Below are positions 3,441-61,358 of a stretch of DNA of 64,000 nt, in pieces (position 1 is the stretch's first letter; every line of letters starts with the position of its first letter). Where the stretch lies: the NCBI RefSeq assembly GCF_004010195.1, contig NC_057735.1, forward strand, positions 23,233,122-23,297,121, read 5' to 3'. Both the position numbers and the translations under genes were made by a program. The stretch is from Chiloscyllium plagiosum (taxonomy: Eukaryota). The notes under the pieces were generated by a model that had not been told where the DNA came from, did not search any database, and saw only the letters and a list, made by a program, of their open reading frames with translations.

Positions 3441-4181
3441 GATGGATTTCAAAATGGAGCTTAGGGCATGAAACTCTGGAATTATTTAAAGATGCAGTAA
3501 CGGTGGTCAATAAGATCATGTAGAATGGATGAATTATGACAAACCATACAGCCTTTCTAACCCATAAGATCTTGTGATTCTGTGATCTTAATTATATTAA
3601 TTATCATCAAAATATTTTTCAAAATAGAATTTTAGCTTGTTCATTTTATAAATATTCTTTTCAATCAATTAGAAATGCAATCATGCATGACAATTTAGGA
3701 TATGAATGAATGCTAAATACACTGGCAATTGAATTATAACTAATCAATCTGTCACAGGCCAGAGTTGATTCATTTATGGCAGATATACATGCAAACTTCT
3801 GATGAAGAATTTGTGTAAATGAGTGGGAGTTATTAGTTACACTTTACAACATGTATAAATTCAGAAAATAATTAATTTTAATTAGGGTTGTCCCATCGCA
3901 AGTTCACATGGTACTTAATCATTGTGTCCTTCTGCATAGGGTTCATTGTGTCTGGAAAATTCACCATTCTGGTAATTACAATTAGCATTACATTTATTTC
4001 AATGGTATTAGATGGTGAGCATATAATAACATTATATATCAATGGCCTAATTGCAGCATTGGAAATTATTGCCAATGAATATATTTTAAAACTTTCGTAA
4101 TTTAATTAAATAGTGGACCATTGTCAGTTCCTAGGTGTCAACAAAATTGCTCACATTGTGCTATACAATATAACTGGATTG

Positions 4182-4427
4182 AAAAATGTGTCGCTGGAAA
4201 AGCTCAGCAGGTCAGGCAGCATCCAAGGAGCAGGAGAATCGATGTTTCGGGCATAAGCCCTCCTTCAGCTTATGCCCGAAACATCGATTCTCCTGCTCCT
4301 CTGAAGAAGGGCTTATGCCCGAAACATCGATTCTCCTGCTCCTTGGATGCTGCCTGACATGCTGCACTTTTTCAGCAACACATTTTTCAGCTCTGATCTC
4401 CAGCATCTGCAGTCCTCACTTTCTCCT
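4182..4427. mobile_element. Non-autonomous Penelope-derived cassette: inverted pLTRs with hammerhead motifs and a 15-bp TSD
   Basis: ~4181-4260 is the reverse complement of ~4309-4388. TSD AATATAACTGGATTG at 4167-4181 and 4428-4442. The sequence matches the pLTR of the Penelope element at 41293. Confidence 0.88.
4301..4328 (+). ncRNA. Minimal hammerhead ribozyme motif (Penelope type)
   Basis: CTGAAGA-A-GGGC-TTAT-GCCC-GAAA-CATC: conserved core, perfect stem II, NUH triplet. An antisense variant with core CTGAAGG lies at 4241-4268. Confidence 0.75.
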
Positions 4428-5136
4428 AATATAACTGGATTGTCAATATTTAAATAAATAATTGAATAATGGTTTAATGAGACATTATTTTGCAACACCT
4501 ATATAAAATATTTGTGTTTATTTTTGTCACAGAAAAATATGTAAATATATGGAAATAAATAGACAATATAAGTTCGCACTGTTACGAATACACCAAAAAT
4601 TGTATGACCAACAACTTGTGATAAAGACAGATTTAAATATAAACATGTTGGTTCAGCAGTGCAAGTAACTCTTATGTTTAGAATCTGAGGTCATTTGGAT
4701 TGATGGTGAATTTCTTTCAATACAGTAACTCACAGCATTTTGTGATACATTTTTCAATGTGGACACAAGATGGCACTAGTGATCCATTGTACAGAAACGG
4801 TTGAGGATATTTGCAGCATTAAAGATCAGCTACTTTGACTGCTTCTGGAATTCTTTCTCTAGAAGTCCATGGACCATAACTTGTGAAGACTTGGGGGGTG
4901 AAACTCAATATTGGTGGAGCAGAACATGTACAGTAAGTGAAATGGATGACCTTTATATACTCTATCCACTGAAGGTGAGTGCGATGTCAAATGAACGGCT
5001 GCCATATTGTTGTACATTTGTTCCTACACTACTAAAATATGTGCTCAGGACTGTTAGACATTGTTGTAAAGGCATAGATGATCTAAACAGTCTAAAATAC
5101 ATATTTTAAAGATAATTGTGGAATTCCCACACCTCT

Positions 5137-5524
5137 TATGGGCTTATGCCCGAAACGTCGATTCTCCTGTTCCTTGGATGCTGCCTGACCTGCTGTGCTT
5201 TTCCAGCAACACATTTTCAGCTCTGATCTCCAGAATCTGCAGTCCTCATTTTCTCCTCTAAGATTTTAACCTACTGCGAATCCTCTTACAAGGATTCCAG
5301 TGAGTCCCTCTCTCACTGCACACCCCAGGTCATCTCCTCTGCACAGAAGCTCTTCAGCCACATTCTCAAACAGACTCGCTACCACAGCCACATCTCCTTC
5401 CTCAGCACCTGCCTACGGAACCGACTGATCCCGCACAGAAGGGCTTATGCCCGAAACGTCGAGTCTCCTGTTCCTTGGATGCTGCCTGATCTGCTGCGCT
5501 TTTCCAGCAACACATTTTCAGCTC
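5137..5524 (+). mobile_element. Penelope-derived cassette: two tandem partial pLTRs around the start of the PLE ORF, 14-bp TSD
   Basis: Direct repeats at ~5140-5224 and ~5441-5524 (GGGCTTATGCCCGAAACGTCG...). The middle reads RYHSHISFLSTCLRNRLIP, which resembles a PLE ORF N-terminus. TSD ATTCCCACACCTCT at 5123-5136 and 5525-5538. Confidence 0.85.
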
Positions 5525-6299
5525 ATTCCCACACCTCTACCTATTTTGGAGATCATATATAATTTCTTTACTTTGCTTCCAGATAGTTTACCCCCTGCTT
5601 TTCCAGAAGGAAAATCAACTAAAATCTGTGAAGAATACATGCTCATTTGGCTTGTCCTGTATACCTTAAAATCGAACTCCAGTAGGACCAGTACTTTTAC
5701 TCTAAGTATTACTAGTAATTTCTCACGGGATTGTGCCATTTGATTTGGGTGACCATTTTTCTCTTGCCCATTTCTAATGGATTAACCATCTGCTCCTTGT
5801 TAAAGCTGAGATGCTTGACTTTAAGAAACACAGCACCCAACCATGTTTACTCTTAAGACCAAATTTATAATAGAACAGTCAATGACCCTTTTCATCAATG
5901 TGCTGATGATCATGAGTAGATCAAGTTGGATTTGTTTTGGTTTTTGTGACCAGGTCATTACATAAAATATTCCTCCGTCCAATTTTCAAAGTAGCAATGT
6001 CTTCAGAGACTATGCTACATGTGGAAAACTAACTACATCCACAACTATTACTGTCATATAGCACTACCAGTGACAGCTATAGTCAGAGCTGCATTGACCT
6101 TCTAAGCTACAAGGCCATTGCTGGTTACCAGGGCAACAAACTATGAGACATGAGATACATAACTATGAGACCTGAGACCTGAGGCTCAGGTTAAAAATGT
6201 TGATTTATCTTTCTGGGTTGTCATTGCAAGGATCAAGTGAGCTGTGCTGTACAGTATTGGAGACTGCAAAGACTATGGGCAACATGCTGACATCAGTAG

Positions 6300-7670
6300 C
6301 AAAGACTTTCATTCCAGAACTAGCTGCATCTTTAACCAAGCTGTTCCAATAGAGCTACAACATTTGCATCTACCTGGCAAAATGGAAAATTATCCAAGTT
6401 ATGTCCTATTCATGAAAAGCAAAACAAATCCAAACTGATCTACTTGCAATCATCAGCACAATGATGGCAGGGGTCATTGACAGTTCTATCAAATGACACT
6501 TACAAAGCAATAACTTGTTCACTGAAGCTCAGTTTGGTTTCCACCAAAGCCCGTCAGCTCCTGACCTCATTACTGCCTTTGTTTAAGCTGTACAAAGGCT
6601 TGAACGTGACATCAAATTGATTGAGGATGGCATCCGGAAGCCATAGCAAAAGTGGAGTCAATGGGAATCATGGGGGAAAGCTCTCTGCTGGTTGTAGTTT
6701 AAGGAAGATGTTTGTCATTGCTGGAGGTCTATCATCTCAGTTCCATGGCATATTTTGAAGTGCACCTCAGGGTAGTGTCTTTGGCCCAATCAACTTCAGC
6801 TGATTCACTGATGTTGTTCCCTCCAATATAATATTAGAAATAGGAATGTTTACTGATGACTGCATCATGTCAGTACCATTTACAATTGCTCAGATAGAGA
6901 AACAGTTCAGGTTCATATGCAACAAAATCTTGACAGCCTTCAGACCCTGGCTGCTAAGGAACATTAATGCCAAACAAGTATCTGGCAATGGTGAACTTTA
7001 CAAAAGATAATCTAATCTCCTCTCCTTAATGCTCAATTGCATCACTGAATCCCCAACTATCAACCCTTTCATGGTAACCATTGACCATATATTGTATTGG
7101 ATTAGCAATAAAAATACTTGAACTTACAAGAGCTGGTCAGAGGCTGGAAATCTGTGGCAAGTAACGTACCTCTGGACCCTCCAAAGCCTGTCCACAAGTC
7201 AGAAGTGCAATGGAATACTCACTACTTGCCTGGGTAAGTGCAGCTCCAACAAGACTCAAGAAGATTCCAGCCAGGACAAAGCAATACACGTGATCATACT
7301 CTATCCACCAATTTAAACATTCACTTTCTACATGATTGATACACAGTGGCAGGAGTTGTACTATACACCGTATTATTGGAACTCATCAAGGCTCTTTTAA
7401 GGGCACTTTGCAAACCTGCCCTGTATCATTTGGATGCATGGGAATACCATTGCCTGCAAGTTCTCATCCAAAACGGGCAGCAAGCTGGCTTGGGACTGTA
7501 TTGCAGTTTCCTCACTATAGTGGGATCAAAATTCTGATTGTCACTCCCAAACAGCATTTGCGGGATACTTCCACCAGTGGGTTGCAGTAGGTAAGAAACA
7601 TAGATCATCACCACCTTCTCAAGGGCAATTAGGGTTCAGAAACAATGCTGACCTAACAAGTATTGCCTAC
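6300..7670 (+). mobile_element. Old CR1/L2-group LINE, decayed RT and 3' end
   Basis: Degenerate RT motifs: QFGF at ~6530, PQGSVFGP at ~6765 and FTDD at ~6850. The 3' tail CACCACCTTCTCAAGGGCAATTAGGG is present. Confidence 0.7.
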
Positions 7671-8479
7671 ATTCAATCATAGTATTAAAAGTATGAGTAA
7701 AATAAAATTACAATCAATTGCAATCACTTTATATGTAGTTATTACATTTGTTCCTCCAGTATTATCTTTGATTCCATTATTTTTAAACATCGACTTTGGT
7801 AAAATGCAGCAATTGATATTTCAGGGTTTGGCTTTTGCTAAATTTATGAACACTAAAGAATGCATCATGTTAACTCTATTGATTTTAATATTCACTTCAG
7901 AGAAAAACATGAGAATTTAATAGCCCTCTGTAGCTTCTCATAAACATCTCACATGCTGTGATACTGGCAAATTGTCAAAAATTTGACGGAACAAATATTC
8001 TTAGCTGTCATTAAACATCACCAGGAGTTACCCTTACATTTATTTGTTAATTTTAACAAATAATAGTACAACAGTGGTAAACATTAGATTATTGATTTGT
8101 ACTGAACACTGCCCAGAGTATTTCTACAATTCCAAAATTTGATTGTCAAAAATTAGCAATAAACCCAGTAAAAAGATGTTTTGAGCTTGTTAAAACATGA
8201 TTAAACTCATTAATGTAAAATAGGTTCACCATTCTCCAGTTACACAGTCATCCAAAAGTGAGTAACAAGCTCCTTTTCAGAGCTGGGGTTGATGAGCTGA
8301 AGGCCTGACAATATCAGTACAAAGTAACAAAGGTAAATAACAAAAAGCAAAGTCTTTTTACTTGTTACCTAGTGAGAATCTCAGGAACAGTGAGCTGAAT
8401 GCTTTATGGAGTTAGTGGCTGTGAAGGTCAGACTGCATTTACTTCACTGCCATAGGGACACCTCACTCAGATGTCAGCC

Positions 8480-8521
8480 ACTTTGGTGACTCCATTTAGA
8501 CTTTGGTGACTCCATTTAGAC
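8480..8521. repeat. Perfect 20-bp tandem duplication
   Basis: ACTTTGGTGACTCCATTTAG x2 (+AC). Confidence 0.95.
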
Positions 8522-9099
8522 AACTGATGCTTACTTAATGCACAATAAAAGAATGGCAGATTGTACTGCAATAGAAGTGAATTGTTTTGTTTTGAATTGT
8601 GTTTAATTTAACTGTTGTGCAAATTGAATTTCTATGCATTGGTTGTTGCAATGTCTTCTTAATACTTGGTCCAATTTTAAAGTTAAGCTGGATATATAAG
8701 TGAGTAAGCAAGGAGAAGCTGCAAGGAAAGTGCAAAAATAAATCAACTTGTTTTAACAGTTTTTTTTTGTTTGGTGGGTGGTAGAGTTGAGGTCCTTTAT
8801 TGAAACTTCGGAAAGCTCATTGCTATTAGTGCAGGGCCACATGATGCTAGCAAACTGATCTGAAATTAATTCAAACTGGCTGCTTCTACTCTACTCCAGA
8901 CATGCTATTGCTGGAGGGCAACTCCTGAGATCACTCACTGATTTGTCTGAATACAGAACAGTGGTCATATACATGCTTTTGGCGTCCCTGCCTCATAGTT
9001 TTCTCTAACCATTCTCAAAGTGAACTGAAGATGGCTGTAACTACATTTATGGATTTTGGGCCACAAAACCTCAGAAGCAATAGAGTCTTAATTAGCAGA

Positions 9100-9300
9100 A
9101 TAAAGAAAGAACTTGCCTTTTATTGTGTTTTTTACATCCTTAACTTGGCTCAAAGCCATTTGCAGCCAGTGAATTACTTTTGAAGTGCAGTTACTATTGC
9201 TCAGCAACAGACCAGCAAATTTCTCACAGAAATGTACCACAAACAGCAGTAAGGAAATGGGTGAAATCTTCTGCACTATGTCCCTGGCAGGACAACAGGA
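9100..9300 (-). mobile_element. Decayed DeuSINE-like (SacSINE1/AmnSINE1-type) 3' portion
   Basis: AAGAAAGAACTTGC...CAAAGCCATTTGCAGCCAGTGAATTACTTTTGAAGTGCAGT resembles the reverse complement of the L2-derived DeuSINE tail (recalled, not aligned). Confidence 0.55.
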
Positions 9301-9509
9301 ACATTTTGTGTCTGGAACCTGATTTCCTACTGAGCAGGCTTTGGCAAGGCTCTTTCCTTGACAAAGAGCATTAACATTTTGTAGTCCTCCCGATTATTTA
9401 GGAAGGTTGGAAGCACTATACATCCATTCTGTAGCAAAAAAGAGTGACTAATTAAAGGAACCACAGCATGTGTGCAGCACATGAACTAAAGGCAGCAGAA
9501 ACCACAGGA

Positions 9510-9720
9510 ATGGAAGGGAGACCAAGCAAGGGTACTCCACAAATCACATATTCTTACTTGGAGACCTTGTTGTGGAATGTGAAGGACTGTAATGAGGTGA
9601 TAGCTCCAAATGACAGAAGGGGACAACCGATCAGAGTATCCAGTGGCAAAGGAAGTGAGCAGCTGACAAGTGGTTCCTTGGACGCAGCATCACTGAGGAT
9701 CTAAAACTCCAGGAGAGTAG
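9510..9720 (+). pseudogene. Decayed Myb/SANT-like domain (PIF/Harbinger accessory-protein type)
   Basis: TPQITYSYLETLLWNVKDCNEVIAPNDRRGQP, then after a frameshift VAKEVSS*QVVPWTQ. This follows the NAIF1/MSANTD-like pattern. Confidence 0.45.
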
Positions 9721-11269
9721 GAAAACTGAGTGACTGAGCACTTGCCAGTATTGAGTTCCACATTCTTACCAATCAATCTCTTGAACAGCATACCTCTGGC
9801 AAACACACCTTGCCAATCCATTCAGTCCTCTCTCTGCAGGCAGTTTACACTCCCAGCTAAACCACCAAAACTCATGCCACCCACCATTACAGTTGGACCT
9901 CAGTGTTCTCACTCCCCTTTGCCTTGTGGAGAGGCTTTTGTTTTTAAGGAGGAAGCAGCTCATGCTGCTGCTGCTGCTGCTGGAGCAATGCTGACATTAC
10001 TGTGGCTTCTGTTGTTGCCACTCATCAGCAGTGAAAGTTGGAACTGCAGACGTTGCTCCTTTGCCACATTAGAGGCTGGCAGTTGTGAATTGCAGCTTAA
10101 GATGAGTGGGGTGCCTTCCAACAAGTTGACTATCACCCGTCACATAATGAAAAAAAACTCTTTGAGAGAAGAACTGTCCTCAATAACAGCTTCTCAACTA
10201 GCCATGGTGGAGCTCTGGGATGTATGTATGAAGAAGGCACACGTGTAGACTATTCAGCCAACTCATCAGAGACTTCAGAGTTTCTCAGCTTCACTGAAGT
10301 AATTGTGCATTGGCTTCAGTTACTCTAACAAAGTGCAGATACAGCAATGTTGCTGTAGACTGTGAAGGAAAAAGGAATCCATGATTAAGATGCTTTTAAT
10401 TGCCTTTTTAATTTCTTCATACAGGACCCAAGGAAACTCAGGGCTAGTACTAGAGAAAACTGGGAGAAGGTGAGATGACAGGGTAGGCTGAAACTTCTTT
10501 TGTGTCCAGAAGAGCACTCTTGCACATATGAAAACAACAGTGGACAATGTTGGCTGGAAGTGGGCTTTCTTGCTGAATACACAGCTGGCCAACTTGTTCA
10601 GCTCACAATGGCTCCAAAGCAGAACAGCAACCTTTTAATTGTAGTGTGTTCAAGTGTCCTCTATGTGTCTTATACATGTTATGGACTAGATCAAACTCCT
10701 TCAAAAAATTCAGAAGGTAGTCTAGACCCTAATATTTTCTTTCTTTTAAAGGTAACTGTAAGGAGTTGCATTCCAGATGTAATTCGATTGGTTGAACTAC
10801 CAGATTTGAAGCAAAACACACTTTATTTATATACTACAATTGAAATACAACAAAAGAAAAAGAATTTGGAATAATTAACTTTATTGGAAAACTTAACAGA
10901 ATAATAGATTATTTAGGTACTAAACAGTGTTTATTCCACTATAGTGACATCCCATAATCACACCCTAGACAGAGGCAAATTTAGAAAATTGATTGTCTGG
11001 CATGGAATTCCAGCAACAGAAGGAAACATCATCATCAGGAGAAAACTCTGAGAGACAATGCAGCAGGAAGAGATGTACTACAGCTTCCAAACCCTGCTAA
11101 GCCTAAGCAACCATTGTTACTGGAAAACTAAAACTAGAAAAAATCCTGGTTCCATGGGAGCTTGGCCACCCGTTCAGGCTGCTTCTATTATTCCAACTTT
11201 AAAGAAAAACCTAAAGGACTCACAAGCTGTTTACTTTATTACCTTTGAGTAGACAGCTCGGTATCTCTG

Positions 11270-11406
11270 CAAGTCAGGCAGTATCCGTGGAGCAGAAAAA
11301 TCGACGTTTCGGGCAAAAGCCCTTCATCAGGATTCCTGCTGTGCTTTTCCAGCACCACTCTAATCTGGACTCTGATTTCCAGTATCTGCAGTCCTCACTT
11401 TTGCAT
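11270..11406. mobile_element. Short Penelope pLTR inversion cassette with a 15-bp TSD (1 mismatch)
   Basis: Antisense pLTR half joined to a sense pLTR 3' half. TSD AGCTC(G/A)GTATCTCTG at 11255-11269 and 11407-11421. Confidence 0.85.
11303..11330 (-). ncRNA. Minimal hammerhead ribozyme motif with intact core
   Basis: Minus strand CTGATGA-A-GGGC-TTTT-GCCC-GAAA-CGTC: canonical CUGAUGA/GAAA, GUC triplet, palindromic ACGT stem III. Confidence 0.82.
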
Positions 11407-12188
11407 AGCTCAGTATCTCTGTCTTAATACCTCTCTTCAAAAAAAATCTAATTCAAAATACACCTCTTAAAGCCATAGTACTGTCTCATTTATTTACTGA
11501 TTCCTTTTTCTCTCATGTTTCTCACTTTATGTTTATGAAATGTATCCTCCATTCACTTTATATCTTGGTGGAAATTTGTAAACTTCGGATTTAACAGGTA
11601 TGGAGACAACAGAAGAGGCTAAAATGCAATACAATCACTGTTATTTCAGTATGTCCTGATTTGTTATCAGTTTTCTAAATAAACCACTAAAACTTCTGTC
11701 ACTTGCTGTTAGTTTCTAAAGATAAAATGCAGGAATAGCTTTTTCAAGAACAAATCAACTTGTTTCTCTGCAGGCTTTTAATGACTGTTTTCCCCTTCAG
11801 TTTTAGTTATGGTGATGCATGCAAGAATATGAAGCAGTCAGTGAATGAATGTCACTGCAACAAATTCTGATTGCACGTGTGCCAAAGTGATTAATTGCCA
11901 TATTCATGCAGTGATCCTGGCATGTTAGGAAGTACTGTGGAGTAGCATTATACTCAAGATTCCCAGAAGGTACAGTCTTTATTCACATATTTCAAACAGT
12001 TTTTGAAATAGGTTGACAAAGATATTCTATTTGTACCTGAACCTTTGTTCACACTGATATTTCATTGCTCAAGCTAAGGTGACAACATGTTTGCCTTGAC
12101 ATAATTTTCCTTGAAAACACCTCAACAATGTAAATAAGGCTTCATGCTCAGTTCACATTTTTTATGTGCTAGTGCTATATGTGAATAG

Positions 12189-12581
12189 TGAAGATTAGAG
12201 TGGTGCTGGCAAAGCACAGTGGGTCAGGCAGCATCCGAGGAGCAGGTAAATCGATGTTTCAGGCAAGAGCCCTTCATCAGGAATGAGGACAGAGGAGATG
12301 ACCTGGGGGTGCAGTGAGAGAGAGACTCACTGGGATCTTTGTAGAGAGAGGAGGAGAAATTCTTGAAAGCAAGTACCCTTGCAAGAGGATTCGCAGTAAG
12401 GTGAAAATCAACTAGGCAAAAGTGAGGACTGCAGATGCAGAGAGGCCTCTATTCCTGATGAAGGGCTCCTGCCCGAAATGTCGATTTTCCTGCTCCTCGG
12501 ATGCTGCCTGACCTGCTGTGCTTTTCCAGCACCACTCTAATCTTAACTCTGATCGCCATCATCTGCAGTCCTCTCTTCCGC
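12189..12581. mobile_element. Penelope-derived cassette: inverted pLTRs with two hammerhead motifs and a 14-bp TSD
   Basis: Hammerhead cores at 12253-12280 (-) and 12455-12482 (+). The arms are reverse-complementary and the spacer is antisense to the 5230-5345 PLE 5' sequence. TSD CTATATGTGAATAG at 12175-12188 and 12582-12595. Confidence 0.88.
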
Positions 12582-13129
12582 CTATATGTGAATAGCCCAT
12601 CTTACCCAGTTATGAGAGAAATTCCACCTGATTCACATGGGTTAAAGTAAACAAAAGCCGAAAACCACAATTTTATTATGAAGAGAATAATGGTCTGTGG
12701 TGTTTTGGTGAATGGATGACAGGCAGTTTAGTATGTTGGATAAAATCAAGTATTAGACCTAAATCAGTCAGCCCTCTTTATTTTGTCAGTTGTTTTGTAT
12801 ATTATATCCATTATTTTATTTAAGATGTTGTAGCAGCAATCAGTACCATTGCATGTCATGTTGTTTGAAGCACTCCTGGTCACCAGACGTTAGCTTTGGG
12901 TCATTCTCTCTTGGGGCAGAGATCTACAGGATTTGCTTAATAGCATAAAACCTCTGATTCAAACTGGATTTGCTTGATATGTAATATTTTAGAACCTTGT
13001 AGAACCTTGTGTTGGGATATGAAAATACAATTATCTGAGAAGGTTGAAAATAATTCAGTTGGTTGACTATACTAGCCTGCTCCCTGTACCATATATTGTA
13101 AACACTTTGTCCTGGAGTAACTCATCAAG

Positions 13130-19879: not shown

Positions 19880-20570
19880 TGTGCAGCAAAACTTGGAAAA
19901 CATTCAGGATTTCATTGATGAATGGCAACTAACATTTATGGCACCTAGGGTTCAGGCAATGATTATCCCCAATAAAAAAAATCTGATGATTCCTCTTTGG
20001 CATTTAATGGCATTACCATCACTGAATCCTCTATAATCAAAACCGGGGATTACCATTAACCAGAAACTGAACTGGACCAACCATCTAAATATTGTGGCTA
20101 CAAGTGTACACTAAAGTTTGGAAATTCTGTGGCTAGTACCTGACCTGCTGACTCCTAAAGCTGTACACTATCTGTAAGGCAAGAGTGAAGTACATAATGG
20201 GATATTTTCCACTTAGTTGGATGAGCATAGATCCAATAACAGGCAACAAACCTGACATGATTCAGGACAAAGCAGCCTGCTTGATCGACATCTAATGTAC
20301 CACCTTAAATAATATCATTAACACAGAGAGGCAGCAGTGTCTACCAAATACAAAATAGTGCAGGATTCCAAATCCATGATCTGTACCACGAGGAGGACAA
20401 GGGAACAACTGGACTGGGAACAACAATAACTGGGAACACTTCTACCTGCAAGTTCCCATCCTGCAGGTAGAAGTGTTCCCAGTTATTGTCCCAAGTCAGA
20501 CCATGCTGACTTGGGACAATATTCACAAATCCTTCACTGTCACTGGATCTACTTGGACCTCTCTTTGTAA
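19880..20570 (+). mobile_element. Old CR1/L2-group LINE C-terminal fragment
   Basis: Collinear with 6900-7540 and 23700-24420. Confidence 0.6.
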
Positions 20571-30050: not shown

Positions 30051-32369
30051 ATTTGATCAGGGACCTCGAAGTAAAGGGGCCATTGGAAGGTAGTGACCAC
30101 AATAGAATAAGCTTTAATCTGCAGTTTGAAAGGGAGAAGGTAGAATCGGAAGTGACAATATTTCAGTTGAATAAGGGGAACTATGGAGCTGTAAGGGAGG
30201 AGCTGGCCAAAGTTCAATGGTGCAATACCCTAGCAGGGATGGCAGTGGAGCAACAATGGCAGGTATTTCTGGGTATAATGCAGAATATGCAGGATCAGTT
30301 CATTCCAAAAAGGAAGAAAGATCCTAAGGCGAGGCGGGGTGGCCATGGCTGATGAGGGAAGTTAAGGACCATATAAAGACAAAAGGGAAAAAGTATAACA
30401 TAGCAAAGATGAATGGGAAATCGGAGGACTGGGAAGCTTTTAAAGAACAACAGAGGATAACTAAAAAGGAAATACACAAAGAAAAAATAAGGTGCGAAGG
30501 TAAACTGGCCAAAAATATAAAAGAGGATAGTAAAGGCTTTTTTAGGTATGTGAAGAGAAAAAAAATGGTTAAGACTAAAATTGGGCCCTTGAAGACAGAA
30601 ACGGGTGAATTTATTATGGGGAACAAAGAAATGGCAGAAGAGTCGAATTGGTACTTTGGATCTGTCTTCACTTGGGAAGACACGAGCAATCTCCCAGATG
30701 TAATAGTGGCTGAAGGACCTGAACTGAAGGGAATTTATATTAGGCAGGAAATGGTGTTGGAGAGACTGTTAGGTCTGAAGGCTGATAAGTCCCCGGGACC
30801 TGATGGTCTGCATCCCAGGGTACTGAAGGAGGTGGCTCTAGAAATTGTGGATGTATTGGTGATCATTTTCCAATGCTCTATAGATTCAGGATCAGTTCCT
30901 GCAGATTGGAGGGTGGCTAATGTTGTCCCACTTTTTAAGAAAGGAAGGAGAGAGAAAACAGAGAATTATAGACCAGTTTACTTTGACCTCAGTGGTGGGA
31001 AAAATGCTGTAGTCAATTATAAAGGACGAAATTACAACACATCTGGATAGGAGTAACAGGATAGGTCAGAGTCAGCATGGATTTATGAAGGGGAAATCAT
31101 ACTTGACTAATCTTCTGGAATTTTTTGAGGATGTAACTCTGAAGATGGACAAGGGAGATCCAGTGGATGTAGTATACCTGGACTTTCAGAAAACCTTTGA
31201 TAAAGTCCCACATAGGAGGATAGTGAGTAAGTTTAGGGCGCATGGTATTAGGGGCAAAATACTGACTTGGATTGAAAATTGGTTGGCTGACAGGAAACAA
31301 AGAGTAGTGATAAACGGTTCCCTTTCGGAATGGCAGGTGGTGACCAGTGGTGTGCCACAGGGATCAGTGCTGGGACTACAGGTTTTTACATTGTACCTTA
31401 ATGATATAGATGAAGGTATTAAAAGTAATATTAGCAAATTTGCTGATGACACAAAACTGGGTGGCAGGGTGAAATGTGAGGAGGATGTTAGGAGAATACA
31501 GGGTGATTTGGACAGGCTAGGTGAGTGGATGGATGCATGGCAGATGCAGTTTAATGTGGATAAATGTGTGGTTATCCACTTTGGTGGCAAGAACAGGAAG
31601 GCAGATTACTATCTAAATAGAGTCAAGTTGGGTAAAAGGGCAGTACAACGAGATCTTGGTGTTCTTGTACATCAGTTAATGAAAGCAAGCATGCAGGTAC
31701 AGCAGGCAGTGAAGAAAGTTAATAGCATGCTGGCCTTCGTAATAAGAGGAATTGAGTTTAGGAGCAATGAGGTCCTTCTGCAGCTGTACAGGGCCCTGAT
31801 GAGACCGCACCTGGAATATTGTGCGCAGTTTTGGTCTCCAAATTTGACGAAAGACATTCTGGCTATTGAGGGAGTGCAGCGTAGGTTCACGAGGTCAATT
31901 TCCGGAATGGTGAGACTATCTTACGCTGAAAGATTGGAGCGACTGGGCTTGTAAACCCTTGAGTTTAGAAGACTGAGAGGGGATCTGATTGAGGTGTATA
32001 AGATTATTAAAGGATTGGACACTCTGGAGGCAGGAAGCATGTTTCCACTGATGGGTGAGTCCCGAACCAGAGGACACAGTTTAAAACTAAGGGGTAGGCC
32101 ACTTAGAACAGAGTTGAGGAGAAACTTCTTCATCCAGAGAGTGGTGGGTGTATGGAATGCTCTGCCCCAGAGGGCTGTGGAGGCCAAGTCTCTGGATACT
32201 TTCAAGAAAGAGTTGGATAGAGCTCTTAAGGATAGTGGAATCAAGGGTTATAGGGATAAGGCAGGAACAGGATACTGATTGAGGATGATCAGCCATGATC
32301 ATAATGAATGGTGGTGTTGGCTCGAAGGGCAGAATGGCCTACTCTTGCACGTATTGTCTATTGTCTATT
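30051..32369 (+). mobile_element. CR1 LINE, 5'-truncated ORF2 (end of endonuclease, full RT) and 3'UTR
   Basis: GSDHN, KSPGPDGLHPRVLKE, YLDFQKTFDKVPH, GVPQGSVLG and KFADDTKL motifs in ORFs 30053-32278; (CTATTGT)n tail. Frameshifts and an in-frame stop at 31952. Confidence 0.96.
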
Positions 32370-35455: not shown

Positions 35456-37527
35456 AAGGTAAAAACAAGAGCTGCAGATGCTGGAAACCAGATTCTAGAT
35501 TAGAGTGGTGCTGGAAAAGCACAGCTGTTCAGGCAGCATCCGAGGAGCAGGAAAATTGATGTTTCGGGCAAAAGCCCTTCATTAGGAATAGAGGCAGAGT
35601 GTCTCCAGGGTGGAGAGATAAATGAGAGGAGGGTGGAGGTGGGGAGAAAGTAGCAGAGAGTACAATAGGTGAATGGGGGTGGGGATGAAGGCGATAGGTC
35701 AGAGAGGAGGGTGGGTGAAGGTTGCAAAGAGTACAATGGGTGAATGGGGGTGGGGATGAAGGTGATAGGTCAGAGAGGAGGGTGGAGTGGATAGGTGGAT
35801 AGGCCGGTAGGACAAGTCATGGGGACAGTGCTGAGCTGGAAGTTTTGAGCTGGGATGAGTTGGGGGAAGGGGAAATAAAGAAACTTGTGAAGTCCACATT
35901 GATGGCCTGGGATTGAAGTGTTCCGAGGCGGAAGATGAGGCGTTCTTCCTCCAGGCATCGGGTGGTGAGGGAGTGGCGGTGAAGGAGGTCCAGGACTTCC
36001 ATGTCTTCAGCTGAGTGGGAGGGGGAGTTGAAATGTTGGGCCACAGGGCAGTGTGGTTGATTGGTGCAGGTGTCCCAGAGATGTTCCCTAAAGCGTTCTG
36101 CTAGGAGGCGTCCAGTCTCCCCAATGTAGAGGAGATCGCATTGGGAGCAACAGATACAATAAATGATATTGATTGATGTGCAGGTAAAGCTTTGATGGAT
36201 GTGGAAGGCTCCTTTGTGGCCTTGGATGGAGGTGAGGGAGGAGGTGTAGGCGCAGGTTTTGCAATTCCTGCGGTGGCAGGGGAAGATGCCAGGAAGGGAA
36301 GGTGGGTTGTAGGGGGGTGTGGACCTGACCAGGTAGTCACGAAGGGAATGGTCTTTGCGGAAAGTGGCTAGGGGTGGGGAGGGAAATATATTCCTGGTGG
36401 TGGGGTCCGTTTGGAGGTGGCGGAAATGTTGTCGGATGATCTGTTTATGCGAAGGTTGGTAGAGTGGAAGGTGAGCACCGGGGGGTTCTGTCCTTGTTAC
36501 GGTTGGAGGGGTGGGGTCTGAGGGAGGAGGTGCGGGATGTGGACGAGATGCGTTGGAGGGCATCTTTAACCACATGGGAAGGGAAATTGCGATCTCTAAA
36601 GAAGGAGGCCGTCTGGTGTGTTCTGTGGTGGAACTGGTCCTCCTGGGAGTAGATACGGTGGAGGCGGAGGAATTGCGAATACAGGATGGCATTTTGCAAG
36701 AGGTAGGGTGGGAAGAGGTGTAATCCAGGTAGCTGTGGGAGTCGGTGGGTTTGTAAAAAAATGTCGATGTCAAGTCAGTCGTCATTAATGGAGATGGAGA
36801 GGTCCAGATAAATTTAAGGTCAGGGTGGAATGTGTTGGTGAAGTTGATGAATTGCTCAATCTCCTCGCGGGAGCACAAGGTGGCACCAATGCAGTCATCA
36901 ATGTAGTGGAGGAAGAGATGGGGAGTCGTGCCGGTGTAACTACGGAAGACAGACTGTTCTACGTAGCAAACAAAGAGACAGGCATAGCTGTGGCCTATAT
37001 GGGTGCCCATGGCTACCCCTTTGGTCTGGGGGAAGTGGGAGGATTTGAAGGAGAAATTGTTGAGGGTGAGGACCAGTTCAGCCAAACGAATGAGAGTGTC
37101 AGTGGAAGGGTACTGTTGGGGACGTCAGGAGAGGAAGAAACGGAGGGCTTGGAGGACCTGGTCATGGTGGATGGAGGTATGGAGGGATTGGATATCTATC
37201 ATGAAGATGAGGTGTTGGGGGCTGGGGAAACGGAAATCTTGGAGGAGGTGGAGGGCATGGGTGGTGTCTCGAACATATGTGGGGGGTTCATGGACTAGGG
37301 GGGGATAGGACAGTGTCGAGGTAGGTAGAGATGAGTTCAGTGGGGCAGGAGCATGCTGAGACAATTGGTCGGCCAGGGTGGTCAGGCTTGTGGATCTTGG
37401 GAAGGAGGTAGAACCGGGCAGTGTGGGGTTCCCGGACTATGAGGTTGGAAGCTGTGGGTGGGAGATCTCCTGAGGTGATGAGGTTCTGTATGGTCTGGGA
37501 GATGATGGTCTAGTGATGGGGAGTGGG
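35456..37527 (-). mobile_element. Penelope-like element (Neptune-like), 5'-truncated: RT, GIY-YIG endonuclease and 3' pLTR
   Basis: ORF 35817-37085: QTKGVAMGT, FLHYIDDC, Cys linker CHRRNCKTC, IIYCICC...LYIGETGR. The pLTR hammerhead at 35558-35585 has a mutated core (CTAATGA). Flanks GAACTTTAT at 35447-35455 and 37528-37536. Confidence 0.95.
35623..35790. repeat. Imperfect ~70-bp tandem duplication inside the Penelope 3' region
   Basis: GAGTACAAT(A/G)GGTGAATGGGGGTGGGGATGAAGG(C/T)GATAGGTCAGAGAGGAGGGTGG occurs twice. Confidence 0.8.
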
Positions 37528-39363: not shown

Positions 39364-41292
39364 AACAAAAGGTGTACAGCATGGAAACAGACCCTTTGGT
39401 CCAACTTGTCCATGCCAACCAGAATCCCAATCTAATCTAGTCTGATTTGCCATCACTTGGCCCATATCCCTCTAAACCCTTCCAATTCATCTATCCATCC
39501 AGATGCCTTTTAAATGTTAGAATTGCATCAGCCTCCACTACTTCCTGTGGCAGCTCATTCCATACGTGCACCACCATTTGCATGAAAAAGTTGCCCCTCA
39601 TATCCCTTTTATATCTTTCCGTGCTTACCCTAAACCTATGCTCTCGAATTCTGGACTCCCCCAACCAAGGGAAAAATACCCTATCCATGCCCCTCATGAT
39701 TTTATAAACCTCTATAAGGTCACCCCTCAGCCTCTGATGCTCCAGGGAAAACAGCCCCAGTCTATTTAGCCTCTCCTTTTAGCTCAAATCCTCCAACCCT
39801 GGCAACATACTTGTAAATCTTTGCTGAACCCTTTCAAGTTTCACAGCATCCTTCCAATAGAAAGGAGACCAGAATTGCATGCAATGTTCTAAAAGTGACC
39901 TAACTAACATCCTATGCAGCTGCAACGTGACCTCACTATACTCAATACTCTGACAAATAAAGGAAAGCATACCAAACGCCTTCTTCACTATCTTATCTAC
40001 CTGCGACTTTACTTTCAAGGAGTTATGAATCTGCACTCCAAGGTCTCTTCGTTCAGCGTAACACTCCCTAGGACCTTACCATTAAGTGTATAAATCCTCC
40101 TCTGATTTGCTTTTCCAAAATGCAGCACCTCGTATTTATCTACATTAAACTCCATCTGTTACTCCTCAGTCCATTGGCCCATCTGGTCAAGATCCTGTTG
40201 TAATCTGAAGTAACCTTCTTCACTGCCCTCTACACCTCCAATTTTAGTGCCATCTGCAAACTTACTAACTATGCCTCCATATGCTTACATCTAAATCATT
40301 ATATAAATGACAAAAAGTAGTGGGCCCAGTATCACTCCTTATCGCACTCCACTGGTCACAGGCCTTCAGTCTGAAAGGACACCCTCCCCCACCACCCTCT
40401 GTATTTTACCTTCGAGACAGTTCTGTATTCAAATGGCTAGTTCTCCTTGTATTCCATGAGATCTAAACTTGCTAACCAGTTTCCCACGGGGAATGTTGTC
40501 GAACACCTTACTGAAGTCCATATAGATAACATCCACCGCTCTGCCCTCATCAATCCTCTTTGATACTTCTTCAAAAAACTCAATCAAATTTGTTAGACAT
40601 GATTTCTCACGCACAAAGCCATGCTGACTATCCCTAATCAGTCCTTGCCTTTCCAAATACATGTAAATCCTGTCCCTCAGGATTCCCTCCAACAACCTGC
40701 CCACCACCAAGGTCAGGCTCACTGGTCTATAGTTCCCTGACTTGTCCTTACCACCTTTCTTAAATAGTGGTACCATATTAGCCAATCTCCAGTCTTCTGG
40801 CACCTCACCTGTGACAATCGATGATACAAATATCTCAGTAAGGGGCCCAGCAATCACTTCCCTAGCTTCCCACAGAGTTCTGGGGTACACCTGGTCAGGT
40901 CCTGGGGATTTATCCACTTTTATGCATTTCAAAACATCCAGCATCTCCTCCTTTGTAATATGGATATTTTTCAAGATGTTACCATCTATTTCCCCACATT
41001 CTATATCTTCCACTGTGAGCACTGATGCAAAATACTCGTTTAGTATCTCCCCCATCTCCTGCAGTTCCGCACAAAGGTGGCCTTGCTGATCTTTGAGGGC
41101 CCCTATTCTCTCCCTAGTTACCCTTTTGTCATTAATGTATTTGTAAAAACCCTTTGGTACTCCTTAACCCGATTTGTCAAAGCTATCTCATGTGCCCTTT
41201 CTGTCCTCCTGATTTCCCTTTTAAGTATACTCCTACTGCCTTGATACCCTTTGAAGGATTCATTTGATCTATCTTGTCAATACCCTGACATA

Positions 41293-42696
41293 CTTGAAAA
41301 ATGTGTTGCTGGAAAAACACAGCGGGCCAGGCAGTATCTGAGAGCAGGAGAATCGACGTTTCGGGCATAAGCCCTCCTTCAGGAATGAGGCTGGTGTGCC
41401 AAGTGTGCTGAGATAAAAGGTAGGGGGGAAGGAATTTGGGGAAGGGGCGCTGGGAATACGATAGGTGGAAGGAGGTTCAGGTGAGGGTGATAGGCCGGAG
41501 AGGGGGTGGGGAAGAAGATTGCAGGTCAAGAAGGCGGTGCTGAGTCCGAGGGTGGAGACTGAGATAAGGTGGGGGGAGGGGGGAAATGAGGAAGCTGGAG
41601 AAATCTACTTTCATCCCGTGTGGTTGGAGGGTTCCTAGGCAGAAGAGGAGGTGCTCTTCCTCCAGGCGTCATGTTGCCATTGTCTGGCGATGGAGGAGGC
41701 CAAGGACCTGCATGTCCTTGATGGAGTGGGAGAGGGAGTTAAAGTGTTCAGCCACGGGGCAGTTGGGTTGGTTGGTGTGGGTGTGCCAGAGGTGTTCTCT
41801 GAAACGTTCAGCAAGTAGGCGGCCTGTCTCCCCAGTGTAGAGGAGACCACATTGGATGCAGCGGATACAGTAAATGATGTGTGTGGAGGTGCAGGTGAAT
41901 TTGTGACGGATATGGAAGGATCCATTGGGGCCTTGGAGGGAGGTGAGGGGGGAGGTGTGGGTGCACGTTTTGCACTTCTTGTGGTTGCAGAGGAAGGTGC
42001 CGGGAGTGGAGGTTGGGTTGGTGGGGGGTGTGGACTTGACGAGGGAGTCGTAGAGGGAGTGGTCTCTCCTGAATGCTGATAGGGGTGGAGTGGGAAATAT
42101 ATCCCTGGTGGTAGGGTCTGTCTGGAGGTGGGGGAAATGACGGAGGATGATACGATGTATCTGGAGGTTGGTGGGGTGGAAGGTGAGGACCAGTGGGGTT
42201 CTGTCCTGGTGGCGATTGGAAGGGTGGGGTTCAAAGGCAGAGGTGCGGGAATTGGAGGAGATGCAGTGGAGAGCATCGTCGACCATGTCGGAGGGGAAAT
42301 TGTGGTCTTTGAAGAAGGAGGCCATTTGAGTTGTTTGGTATTGGAATTGGTCCTCCTGGGAGCAGATGCGGCGGAGGCGGAGAAATTGGGAATATGGGAT
42401 GGCGTTTTTACAGGGGGCAGGGTGGGAGGATGTATAATCTAGGTAGCTGTGGGAGTCAGTTGATTTGTAGTAAATGTCTGTGTTGAGTCGGTCGCCCAAG
42501 ATAGAAATGGAGAGGCCTAGGAAGGGGAGGGAGGAGTCTGAGACGGTCCAGGTAAATTTGAGGTCAGGGTGGAAGGTATTAGTAAAGTGGATGAACTGTT
42601 CAACCTCCTCGTGGGAGCACGAGGTAGCGCCAATACAATCATTGATGTAGCGGAGGAAAAGGTGGGGGGGGTGGTGCCAGTGTAGCTGCAGAAAAA
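41293..42696 (-). mobile_element. Penelope-like element (RT C-terminal part, GIY-YIG and pLTR) nested in CR1
   Basis: ORF 41669-42499: YYKSTDSHSYL, CNHKKCKTC, IIYCIRC...YTGETGR. Hammerhead variant at 41355-41382. TSD CCTGACATA at 41284-41292 and 42697-42705. Confidence 0.95.
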
Positions 42697-53289: not shown

Positions 53290-54795
53290 GGGGAGGCAAT
53301 GGTATACCTAGTAGATAGTGAGCAAAATTAGGGTGCATAGTATTGGGGGCAAAGTACTAACTTGGATTGAAAGTTGGTTGGCTGATAGGAAACAAAGAGT
53401 AGTGATAATGGCTCCATTTTGGAATGGCAGGCAGTGACCAGTGGGGTACTGCAGAGATCAGTGCTGGGACTGCAGCTTTTTACAATATATGTTAATGATA
53501 TAGAAGATGGTATTAGGAACTAACATTAGCAAATTTGCTGATGATACTAAGCTGGGTGGCAGGGTGAAATATGAGGAGGATGTTAGGAGATTACAGGGTG
53601 ACCTGGACAGGTTATGTGAGTGGTCAGATGCATGGCAGATGCAGTTTAATGTGGATAAATGTATGGTTATCCACTTTGGTGGCAAGAACAGGAAGGCAGA
53701 TTACTACCTAAATGGAATCAATTTAGGTAAAGGGGCAGTACAACGAGATCTGGTTTCTTGTACACCAGTCAATGAAGGTAAGCATGCAGGTACAGCAGGT
53801 AGTTAAGAAGGCTAATAGTATGCTGGCCTTCATAATAAGAGGGATTGAGTATAGAAGCAAAGAGGTTCTTCTGCAGCTGTACAGGGCCCTGGTGAGACCA
53901 CACTTGGAGTATTGTGTGCAGTTCTGGTCTCCAAATTTGAGGAAAGACATTCTGGCTATTGAGGGAGTGCAGCGTAGGTTCACGAGGTCAATTCCTGGAA
54001 TGGCGGGACTACCTTACGCTGAAAGATTGGAGCGACTGGGCTTGTAAACTCTTGAGTTTAGAAGACTAAGAGGAATCTGACTGAGACATATAAAATTATT
54101 AAAGGATTGGACACTCTGGAGGCAGGAAACATGTTTCCGCTGATGGGTGAGTGCCGAACCAGAGGACACAGCTTAACAATACGGGGTAGACCATTTAGGA
54201 CAGAGATGAGGAGAAACTTCTTCACCCAGAGAGTGGTGGCTGTGTGGAATGCTCTGCCCCAGAGGGCAGTGGAGGCCCAGTCTCGGGATTCATTTAAGAA
54301 AGAGTTGGATAGAGCTCTCAAGGATAGTGGAATCAAGGGTTATGGAGATAAGGCAGGAACAGGATACTGATTAAGGATGATCAGCCATGATCATATTGAA
54401 TGATGGTGCAGGCTCGAAGGGCAGAATGGCCTACTCCTGCACCTATTGTCTATTGTCTATTATCGTTAGACTGTTAATCTAGAGACCCAGGTAATGTTCT
54501 GGGGACCTGGCTTTGAAGCCCGCCACAAAAGATTGTGTAATTTGAGCTCAGTAAAATCTGGAAGTAAGAATCTAATAATGACTGAGAGTCCATTGTCGAA
54601 TGTTGGAAAAACCAATCTGGTTCACTAATGTCCCTTAGTGAAGGAAGCTGCTATCCTTGCCCAGTCTGGCCTCCATGTGACTCCAGACCCACAGCAATAT
54701 TGTTGACTCTTAACTGCTCTTTGGGCCATTAGGGATGTGTAATAAATGCTGGCATGACCAGCAATACCCTCATCCTGTGAATGAATGAAATAAAA
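53290..54795 (+). mobile_element. tRNA-derived SINE split by a CR1 insertion (head 53290-53312, body 54458-54795)
   Basis: Joining GGGAGGCAATGG..CCTAGT to TATTATCGTTAGACTGTTAATC restores the head seen at 22402. Confidence 0.75.
53313..54461 (+). mobile_element. CR1 LINE, 5'-truncated; same subfamily as 30051-32369
   Basis: KFADDTKLGGRVK and RPHLEYCVQFWSP motifs; near-identical 3'UTR and (CTATTGT)n tail. Confidence 0.96.
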
Positions 54796-61092: not shown

Positions 61093-61358
61093 CGGAGAAA
61101 ATGAGGACTGCAGATACTGGAGATCCGAGTCGAAAAGTGTGATGCTGGAAAAGCACAGCACTGGGCAGCAGGATAATCACCATTTCGGGCATAAGCCTTT
61201 CATCAGGAATGTTGGGGGGTCTGTGGACAGGGGAGATGAGGAAACTGTTGAAATCAATGTTGATACCAAGCGATTGGAGGGTCCCAAGGCAGAAGATGAG
61301 GCATTCTACCTCCAGACATTGGGCGGCTTGGATTTGACCGTGCAGGAGGCCCAGGACC
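61093..61358 (-). mobile_element. Short Penelope fragment: GIY-YIG C-terminus and pLTR with hammerhead (61181-61206)
   Basis: VLGLLH...LIFCLGTLQSLGINIDF; CTGATGAAAGGCTTATGCCCGAAATG. Flanks ATATGCT at 61086-61092 and 61359-61365. Confidence 0.85.

Follow-up and report, generated by a model that had tools for sequence, protein, structure and literature searches.

Short Penelope-derived inserts in the window

The window analysed here, a stretch of 64,000 nucleotides from the shark Chiloscyllium plagiosum (contig NC_057735.1, positions 23,233,122 to 23,297,121), contains four short inserts, at 4182-4427, 5137-5524, 11270-11406 and 12189-12581, which derive from a Penelope-like element (PLE) encoding a reverse transcriptase (RT) and a GIY-YIG endonuclease (EN). 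A sequence-only reading had presented these cassettes as a family without open reading frame (ORF) sequence, bearing hammerhead ribozymes and built almost entirely from the pseudo-long terminal repeat (pLTR) of autonomous PLE copies at 35456 and 41293; they would be either a retrozyme-like or miniature inverted-repeat transposable element (MITE)-like family or stereotyped abortive integrations. Our analysis confirms that the four inserts are real, and most likely they are dead one-off stumps, not a self-copying ribozyme family. Each is indeed bracketed by its own direct repeat, of 15, 14, 15 (one mismatch; nine exact) and 14 bp, and when flanks were swapped between elements as a null model such a repeat appeared in 1 of 400 trials.

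We describe the cassettes in pLTR coordinates, counted from the initial C of CCTGA, where the hammerhead core begins (+1), with ATT at -3 to -1 and the predicted cut after +29 (table 1). Their derivation from the pLTR of the two long copies holds for the end module; cassettes 2 and 4 add sequence from the element's 5' ORF region and hence are not ORF-less: cassette 2 has 177 nt of it (5260-5436, with 59 open codons) and cassette 4 about 120 nt. For cassette 2 this assignment rests on contiguity with the downstream RT region in another locus (L191), and its 59-aa piece gave no alignment to the homologous protein P0001 (E 0.32). Cassette 2 is also the only direct pair among the four, and in the sense segment of cassette 3 a skip from one CCTG copy to another omits the hammerhead. 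GTC>ATC at the hammerhead cut triplet is found in each of the three pLTR pieces of cassette 1, which hints at a single source RNA.

Neither does the label of hammerhead-bearing apply in general: Among nine motif matches in the window, only that at 11330(-) has every core letter, and both pLTR halves of cassette 2 lack CUGA. The ten-region genome sample introduced below has 30 exact minimal motifs, one of them in the window, for which cleavage is predicted; a scan with Rfam returned no match to a hammerhead family and one weak chance match to mir-70, in a short near-perfect palindrome at 20406-20521 that is unrelated to the pLTR. Three cassettes have inverted arms, and two of these, cassettes 1 and 4, fold back as hairpins (z -18.9 and -13.8); the arms of cassette 3 overlap by about 4 nt and its fold has a z of -0.5. 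Folds of single motifs were discarded as support, z being near 0 in five of six cases and the sixth being helped by an adjoining arm. We see no role for ribozyme cleavage in these products, which are likely dead.

The two long copies are not autonomous either, as they are 5'-truncated (2,070 and 1,404 bp) and frameshifted, and the earlier list of short copies had missed a fifth, older one at 61093-61358.

Table 1. PLE-derived features of the window, with extents in pLTR coordinates (signed numbers); TSD, target-site duplication
Feature	Position	Strand	Description
Cassette 1 left TSD	4167..4181		15 bp; right copy 4428-4442
Cassette 1 inverted arm	4182..4268	-	pLTR +2 to about +87, short end
Cassette 1 extra pLTR piece	4269..4299	+	+12 to +42; putative second pass after a jump
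Cassette 1 sense arm	4300..4427	+	+2 to about +126, tail end; hammerhead motif with GTC>ATC
Cassette 2 left TSD	5123..5136		14 bp; right copy 5525-5538; single copy at empty site of relative
Cassette 2 first pLTR	5137..5259	+	with tail; without CUGA core
Cassette 2 5' ORF region of element	5260..5436	+	to about +346; 40-nt internal deletion
Cassette 2 second pLTR	5437..5524	+	+6 to +92, short end; without CUGA core
Cassette 3 left TSD	11255..11269		15 bp, one mismatch; right copy 11407-11421; inside another interspersed repeat
Cassette 3 inverted segment	11270..11332	-	about -1 to +62; sole fully intact minimal hammerhead motif in window
Cassette 3 sense segment	11333..11406	+	ATTCCTG joined to +63, to about +130, tail end
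Cassette 4 left TSD	12175..12188		14 bp; right copy 12582-12595
Cassette 4 inverted pLTR	12189..12291	-	ATT edge to +93, short end
Cassette 4 tail and 5' ORF piece	12292..12440	-	+106 to +253, joined to ATT edge
Cassette 4 sense pLTR	12443..12581	+	about -11 to +128, tail end
RT/GIY-YIG Penelope-like copy, subfamily A	35456..37527	-	5'-truncated, frameshifted, tail end
Penelope-like copy, subfamily B	41293..42696	-	5'-truncated, short end, 9-bp TSD
Fifth, older short copy	61093..61358	-	about 74% identity; 7-bp flanking repeat; pLTR with ORF 3' piece

Target-site duplications, end pairing and the 5' edge

To place the cassettes within the genome (3.56 Gb), we used an unselected sample of ten regions amounting to 1,164,000 bases with 21,970 N (1.14 Mb net), the window included. 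This sample has 148 pLTR clusters, 74 single, 65 head-to-head and 9 direct; 133 of the 148 do not exceed 450 bp, the pLTR-only stump being the usual product (about 130 clusters per Mb). The seven copies in the window are thus about average in density, and extrapolation from 148 clusters per 1.14 Mb gives an estimated genome total of ~4.6e5 copies.

The TSDs of the two long window copies, both with exact flanks of 9 bp, had suggested a contrast with the 14-15 bp of the cassettes; this contrast does not extend beyond the window. A TSD was called in 52 of the 133 short clusters of the sample, 44 of these being of 14-16 bp, and in 3 of the 15 long clusters (15, 15 and 19 bp), with a calling threshold just above the two 9-bp window flanks. 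Among loci selected by query (edge-cut loci dropped, duplicates kept), the median is 14 bp up to 450 bp of length (28/63 called), 14 bp for 451-1000 bp (25/44) and 15 bp above 1000 bp (7/31). Short and long medians are alike, ruling out a separate TSD class for short copies, and the 9-bp pair in the window is the low tail of one length distribution. The TSDs are 66% AT compared with a background of 59%.

An empty orthologous site, which the sequence-only reading had recommended looking for in related sharks, was found for cassette 2: In contigs of a relative (two samples from one study) the sequence runs from 4403-5122 straight to 5525-5800, with the cassette and one copy of the TSD absent. 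The same contigs have cassette 4 at its orthologous site and probably cassette 1, of which only 21 and 25 letters inside the ends are seen. Cassette 3 lies within another interspersed repeat (about 11130-11480; 638 candidate copies), and two of seven other copies of this repeat are readable across the site, both without the cassette. The individual TSDs and the empty site support the earlier suggestion of separate insertion events carried out by the PLE protein.

How are the two arms of such inserts related? Head-to-head inserts bounded by a TSD, namely 40 of the 65 head-to-head clusters, three of them window cassettes, in every case (40/40) pair a short end at +46 to +95 with a tail end at +110 to +144, in one orientation 26 times and in the other 14 times (binomial p 9e-13). 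In 15 of 32 simple cases it is the short arm that extends further in the 5' direction, by 5 nt or more, so that neither arm was copied from the other. In 11 of the 40 inserts both inner edges lie at ATT. The arms agree in the type of stem-II loop in seven of nine inserts, against 21% expected, and their mean identity is 0.90 within inserts versus 0.83 across; only 6 of 22 inserts have an arm whose partner matches it best.

The 5' edge of the copies is fixed as well. Out of 166 edges, 79 lie at -7 to +3 versus 10 at +26 to +36, around the cut site, and the absence of a peak at +29 led us to reject ribozyme cleavage as the origin of the edge. In an independent check, 84 of 119 hammerhead-core matches had no real 3' untranslated region (UTR) upstream; at the ATT edge itself 0-10 nt of the UTR are variably kept, and loose ends in the contigs of the relative gather at the same positions. 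Seen from the ORF, in a set of 30 loci for which ORF sequence was the sole criterion, the pLTR is rejoined at ATT in 10, from scattered ORF breaks 60-1349 nt past the anchor, and elsewhere in 2, at +6 (cassette 2) and +32; the other 18 have no sense rejoin within the locus, most of them with N gaps. Two further candidates were rejected: the ATT edge as a 3' splice site, such as the one described at the edge of helix I in D. virilis, as no AG precedes ATT here, and a second fixed edge at -76, as edges in loci L002-L030 spread from -108 to -6 and the signal may be query bias.

Recurrence of junctions and the mode of insertion

Recurrent identical junctions at different loci had been named as the sign of a self-propagating family, and unique junctions with TSD lengths equal to those of long copies as the sign against it. 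The evidence now runs largely the second way, both because short and long copies have equal TSD lengths and because no whole cassette layout was found again in junction searches of the genome, in each of which the best 40 candidates were scored; yet pieces of the junctions do recur. No second locus with both inner junctions of cassette 1 appeared among the best 40 of 516 candidates, and its first junction recurs in a series of loci (L310-L322) with the tail on either arm. Cassette 2 has 29 counterparts with nearby but mostly different junctions. Four independent loci share one ORF-to-ATT junction near that of cassette 2; they are 93-97% alike, compared with a mean of 95% for random pairs, their layouts are unlike and they have no private variants in common. 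Among 780 pairs in the unselected set, 2 have similar junctions, as equal-length strings only. Apparent twins (L087/088/089/095, L120/121, L280-282 and L300/307) share their flanks and hence are duplications. Such recurrence is what fixed edges and microhomology are expected to produce in some 4.6e5 copies. Of the two options offered at the outset, stereotyped abortive PLE integration is the one that fits.

We consider it probable that each cassette is a stump from a separate insertion, flanked by a TSD, of an abundant PLE with endonuclease (EN+), produced by cuts 14-15 bp apart and priming on two strands. The PLE protein would cut both target strands at this distance, and reverse transcription would be primed on each strand, once at a short start (about +90) and once at a tail start (about +127). 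The cDNAs would then be copied up to a fixed RNA 5' end at the ATT edge, before the hammerhead, and be joined head to head to give cassettes 1, 3 and 4; alternatively, the enzyme could jump to a downstream point of the RNA and copy again, which would account for the extra piece of cassette 1 and the ORF pieces of cassettes 2 and 4. Precedents come from the Poseidon element of the anole (PAc), whose purified protein, predicted to form a dimer, cuts and extends both strands, has two internal RT start sites bounding the tail and does not need ribozyme cleavage (PMC11167929); our short and tail end classes match these two start sites. A stop of cDNA at the RNA 5' end is plausible because the start site and promoter of Penelope lie in the pLTR (PMC2377424).

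Several observations weigh against this interpretation. The head-to-head clusters that remained without a TSD call stand outside the pairing count, and the short end of cassette 3 (+62) is atypical; moreover, 35 of the 119 hammerhead-core matches continue past ATT into real 3' UTR, so that the stop must be leaky or the RNAs mixed. Locus L077 has the junction position and 3' end of cassette 2, while differing in its 5' end and in lacking the 40-nt deletion; the junction of cassette 3 is exact at 4 of the 14 other loci listed, where the outer ends differ and the junction is sometimes on the short arm; and L351 has the layout of cassette 4, both junctions being off by a few bases. No RNA 5' end has been observed for the element. 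In one polyA single-cell run (2% read), 2,749 reads from both strands, 98% of them continuing into unlike sequence, had no common begin or end and none fell on the unique flanks of cassettes 3 and 4, and a second run gave zero reads, with the species match not established for either. Finally, ATT is the motif of the PAc endonuclease in vitro, so the edge could be a DNA cut (PMC11167929).

This last possibility leads to an alternative with the same class of products, in which the ATT edge would be an endonuclease cut in the element's own pLTR DNA, whether cDNA or a resident copy. We regard it as unlikely, even if, on each strand, the cut made most often by the anole protein is at 5'-ATT-3' beside the ORF-pLTR junction (PMC11167929), because insertion into a resident pLTR should leave upstream of ATT an end at +90 or +127, not the scattered ORF positions that are found, and because the retained UTR is variable. 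The model put forward in the discussion of PMC3846280, which derives head-to-head forms from self-priming on an antisense template or from DNA fold-back, with later trimming, is the least probable of the explanations considered. Palindromic centres are common, as the inserts with both inner edges at ATT indicate, and deletions between CCTG copies like that of cassette 3 could postdate insertion; however, neither arm contains the other in nearly half of the simple cases, strict pairing of short and tail ends is not predicted, and the partner is seldom the best match of an arm. Taken with the agreement of the arms in subfamily, these features fit two RNA-templated passes better than self-priming.

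Could the cassettes nevertheless form a non-autonomous family, retrozyme- or MITE-like, that is mobilised anew by the PLE protein? Their individual TSDs, their very high copy number and the junction position in L077 would agree with this, as would the capacity of pLTRs to mobilise cargo in trans (PMC3846280), and a retrozyme-like unit of 310 nt elsewhere in the genome counts in its favour. In this internally deleted unit with one hammerhead, ORF +236 is joined to 3' UTR -76; there are 20 copies at 14 sites (L279-L298), with the identical junction twice per insert at four of them, as a tandem in L287 and L288, on the two arms of L279 and L290. Examples are found at C9:20.67 Mb, C3:58.35 Mb and C20:42.89 Mb (L287, L288 and L290). 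Such doubling implies that the template itself carried the junction or produced it repeatedly. However, the junction copies are interleaved with ordinary ones in the tree (11 label changes versus 15.3 when shuffled; 9 of 1000 shufflings as low) and span several subfamily variants; at L284 and L308 only one arm has a deletion junction, the UTR of the other arm being normal, and L296 has two different junctions. The variants of L291 are shared by at least 38 other young copies outside the junction lists, only 2 of its 40 top copies being in these lists. The unit could have originated either by repeated end-to-end jumping on a short RNA or by small bursts from deleted source copies; both are possible. 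An inverted pair of equal-length (138) matches at C37915:573-907 suggests another junction present in both arms.

For the four cassettes we find the hypothesis of a self-propagating family quite improbable. Beyond the failure of any whole cassette to recur among the scored candidates, the tail switches arms at shared junction pieces whose outer ends differ, the four loci with a common ORF-to-ATT junction are united by neither private variants nor layout, and most hammerhead motifs are broken. None of the cassettes is a tandem of at least two complete same-strand type I hammerhead units, as retrozymes are defined (PMC7229834; bioRxiv 10.64898/2026.07.22.740005), nor, among the best 40 candidates per search, do they have the many copies with the same ends and junction, grouped in a clade, that mark MITEs or short interspersed elements.

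Twin priming is a term from L1 and strong stop one from LTR elements. A more general and tentative idea, which we consider possible but doubtful, is that PLEs use a strong-stop-and-jump scheme like that of LTR elements: A dimer would begin two cDNAs at two fixed sites close to the 5' end of the RNA, one for each target strand, and these would run to the RNA 5' end ahead of the hammerhead and jump to the 3' end. If true, this would regenerate the pLTR in full copies and leave fold-back stumps when the jump fails, whereas on a short RNA it would give rolling tandem units such as that of 310 nt, that is, retrozymes being born.

The parent element and its known relatives

The parent element has the features of EN+ PLEs: RT followed by a GIY-YIG endonuclease in one ORF, a pLTR that overlaps the ORF start in direct or inverted form with an optional tail of 30-40 bp, a TSD on insertion and a minimal hammerhead motif in the pLTR. 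GIY-YIG matches on both window copies are below the Pfam cut-off; of 75 longer homologues (772-1130 aa, best identity 42%), the two scanned have both RVT_1 and GIY-YIG. The 35456 copy, with its 9-bp TSD (11 with one mismatch), has a Cys motif between RT and endonuclease, and C-x4-C-x2-C is present in this linker in both window copies and P0001. As a Zn-finger-like Cys motif there is the criterion for Neptune/Nematis (PMC8557442), the linker points to an element of that type. No intact full-length copy was recovered, ten candidates being broken by N, and individual real copies were taken as references. Two subfamilies (A and B) or more contribute, their bodies being 75% alike; a young subfamily is present in at least 40 copies with 97-100% identity over 156 nt and has its changes immediately downstream of the hammerhead cut site. 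The element has been recently active.

Some further features of the window may be recorded. The tail end at 4405-4427 and 12415-12430 (pLTR +115 to +135), of subfamily A, consists of CTCAC and a pyrimidine run followed by AG, and resembles a 3' splice site; 5' introns are known in PLEs. Other LINE-like fragments bearing RT lie at 30328-32369, 40429-41163 and 53314-54461 (RVT_1 match on two; self-similarity).

In conclusion, the inserts are real, ordinary in kind and informative in detail. The estimated 4.6e5 copies constitute a fossil record of PLE integration, from which three predictions follow for the existing in vitro system: the cuts should be staggered by 14-15 bp, each strand should be primed at one start site, and the cDNA should stop and jump at the 5' end of the RNA. 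The motif by itself is not enough to annotate a PLE stump as a MITE or a retrozyme. Inverted pLTRs, one-sided tails, partial tandems and TSDs are the standard layout of PLEs (PMC3846280, PMC8557442), and the origin of their tandem and inverted structures has been named as open (PMC8557442, PMC2377424). In searches of the openly accessible literature we found no paper on twin priming or strong stop in PLEs or on non-autonomous PLEs of sharks, and none stating the strict short/tail pairing or the fixed edge.

Several known systems resemble the one described here. The minimal hammerhead of PLEs (PMC4209133) shares the core with the extra base between 9 and 10.1, the G-C base of helix II, the palindromic 15.2-16.2 and the lack of helix III, whereas most motifs in the window are mutated and the 5' edges lie before helix I, not at the cut site; the same work has already reported dual motifs on opposite strands 100-700 bp apart, probably truncated PLEs. 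Animal non-LTR retrozymes (PMC7229834; bioRxiv 10.64898/2026.07.22.740005) are likewise PLE-derived, hammerhead-bearing and non-coding, with long TSDs, and the preprint's tables include one cartilaginous fish; the 310-nt unit at L287 and L288 is a tandem of similar size, but no tandem of intact hammerhead units on one strand occurs among the four cassettes. With PAc our element would share two internal RT starts bounding the tail, cutting and extension of both strands and independence of ribozyme cleavage, and it shares AT-rich targets, while having the Cys motif in its RT-EN linker; inverted products and a fixed 5' stop are not treated in the main text of that study (PMC11167929). Pen2a_Av of Adineta (PMC3846280; also PMC8557442) shows the same 5' truncation, partial tandems, adjoining inverted copy, tail of 30-40 bp at one end and TSD. 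It differs in that here the pLTR-only form is the majority product and the TSDs are mostly of 14-16 bp instead of 8-10, with strict pairing of short and tail ends and a fixed 5' edge that could be counted.

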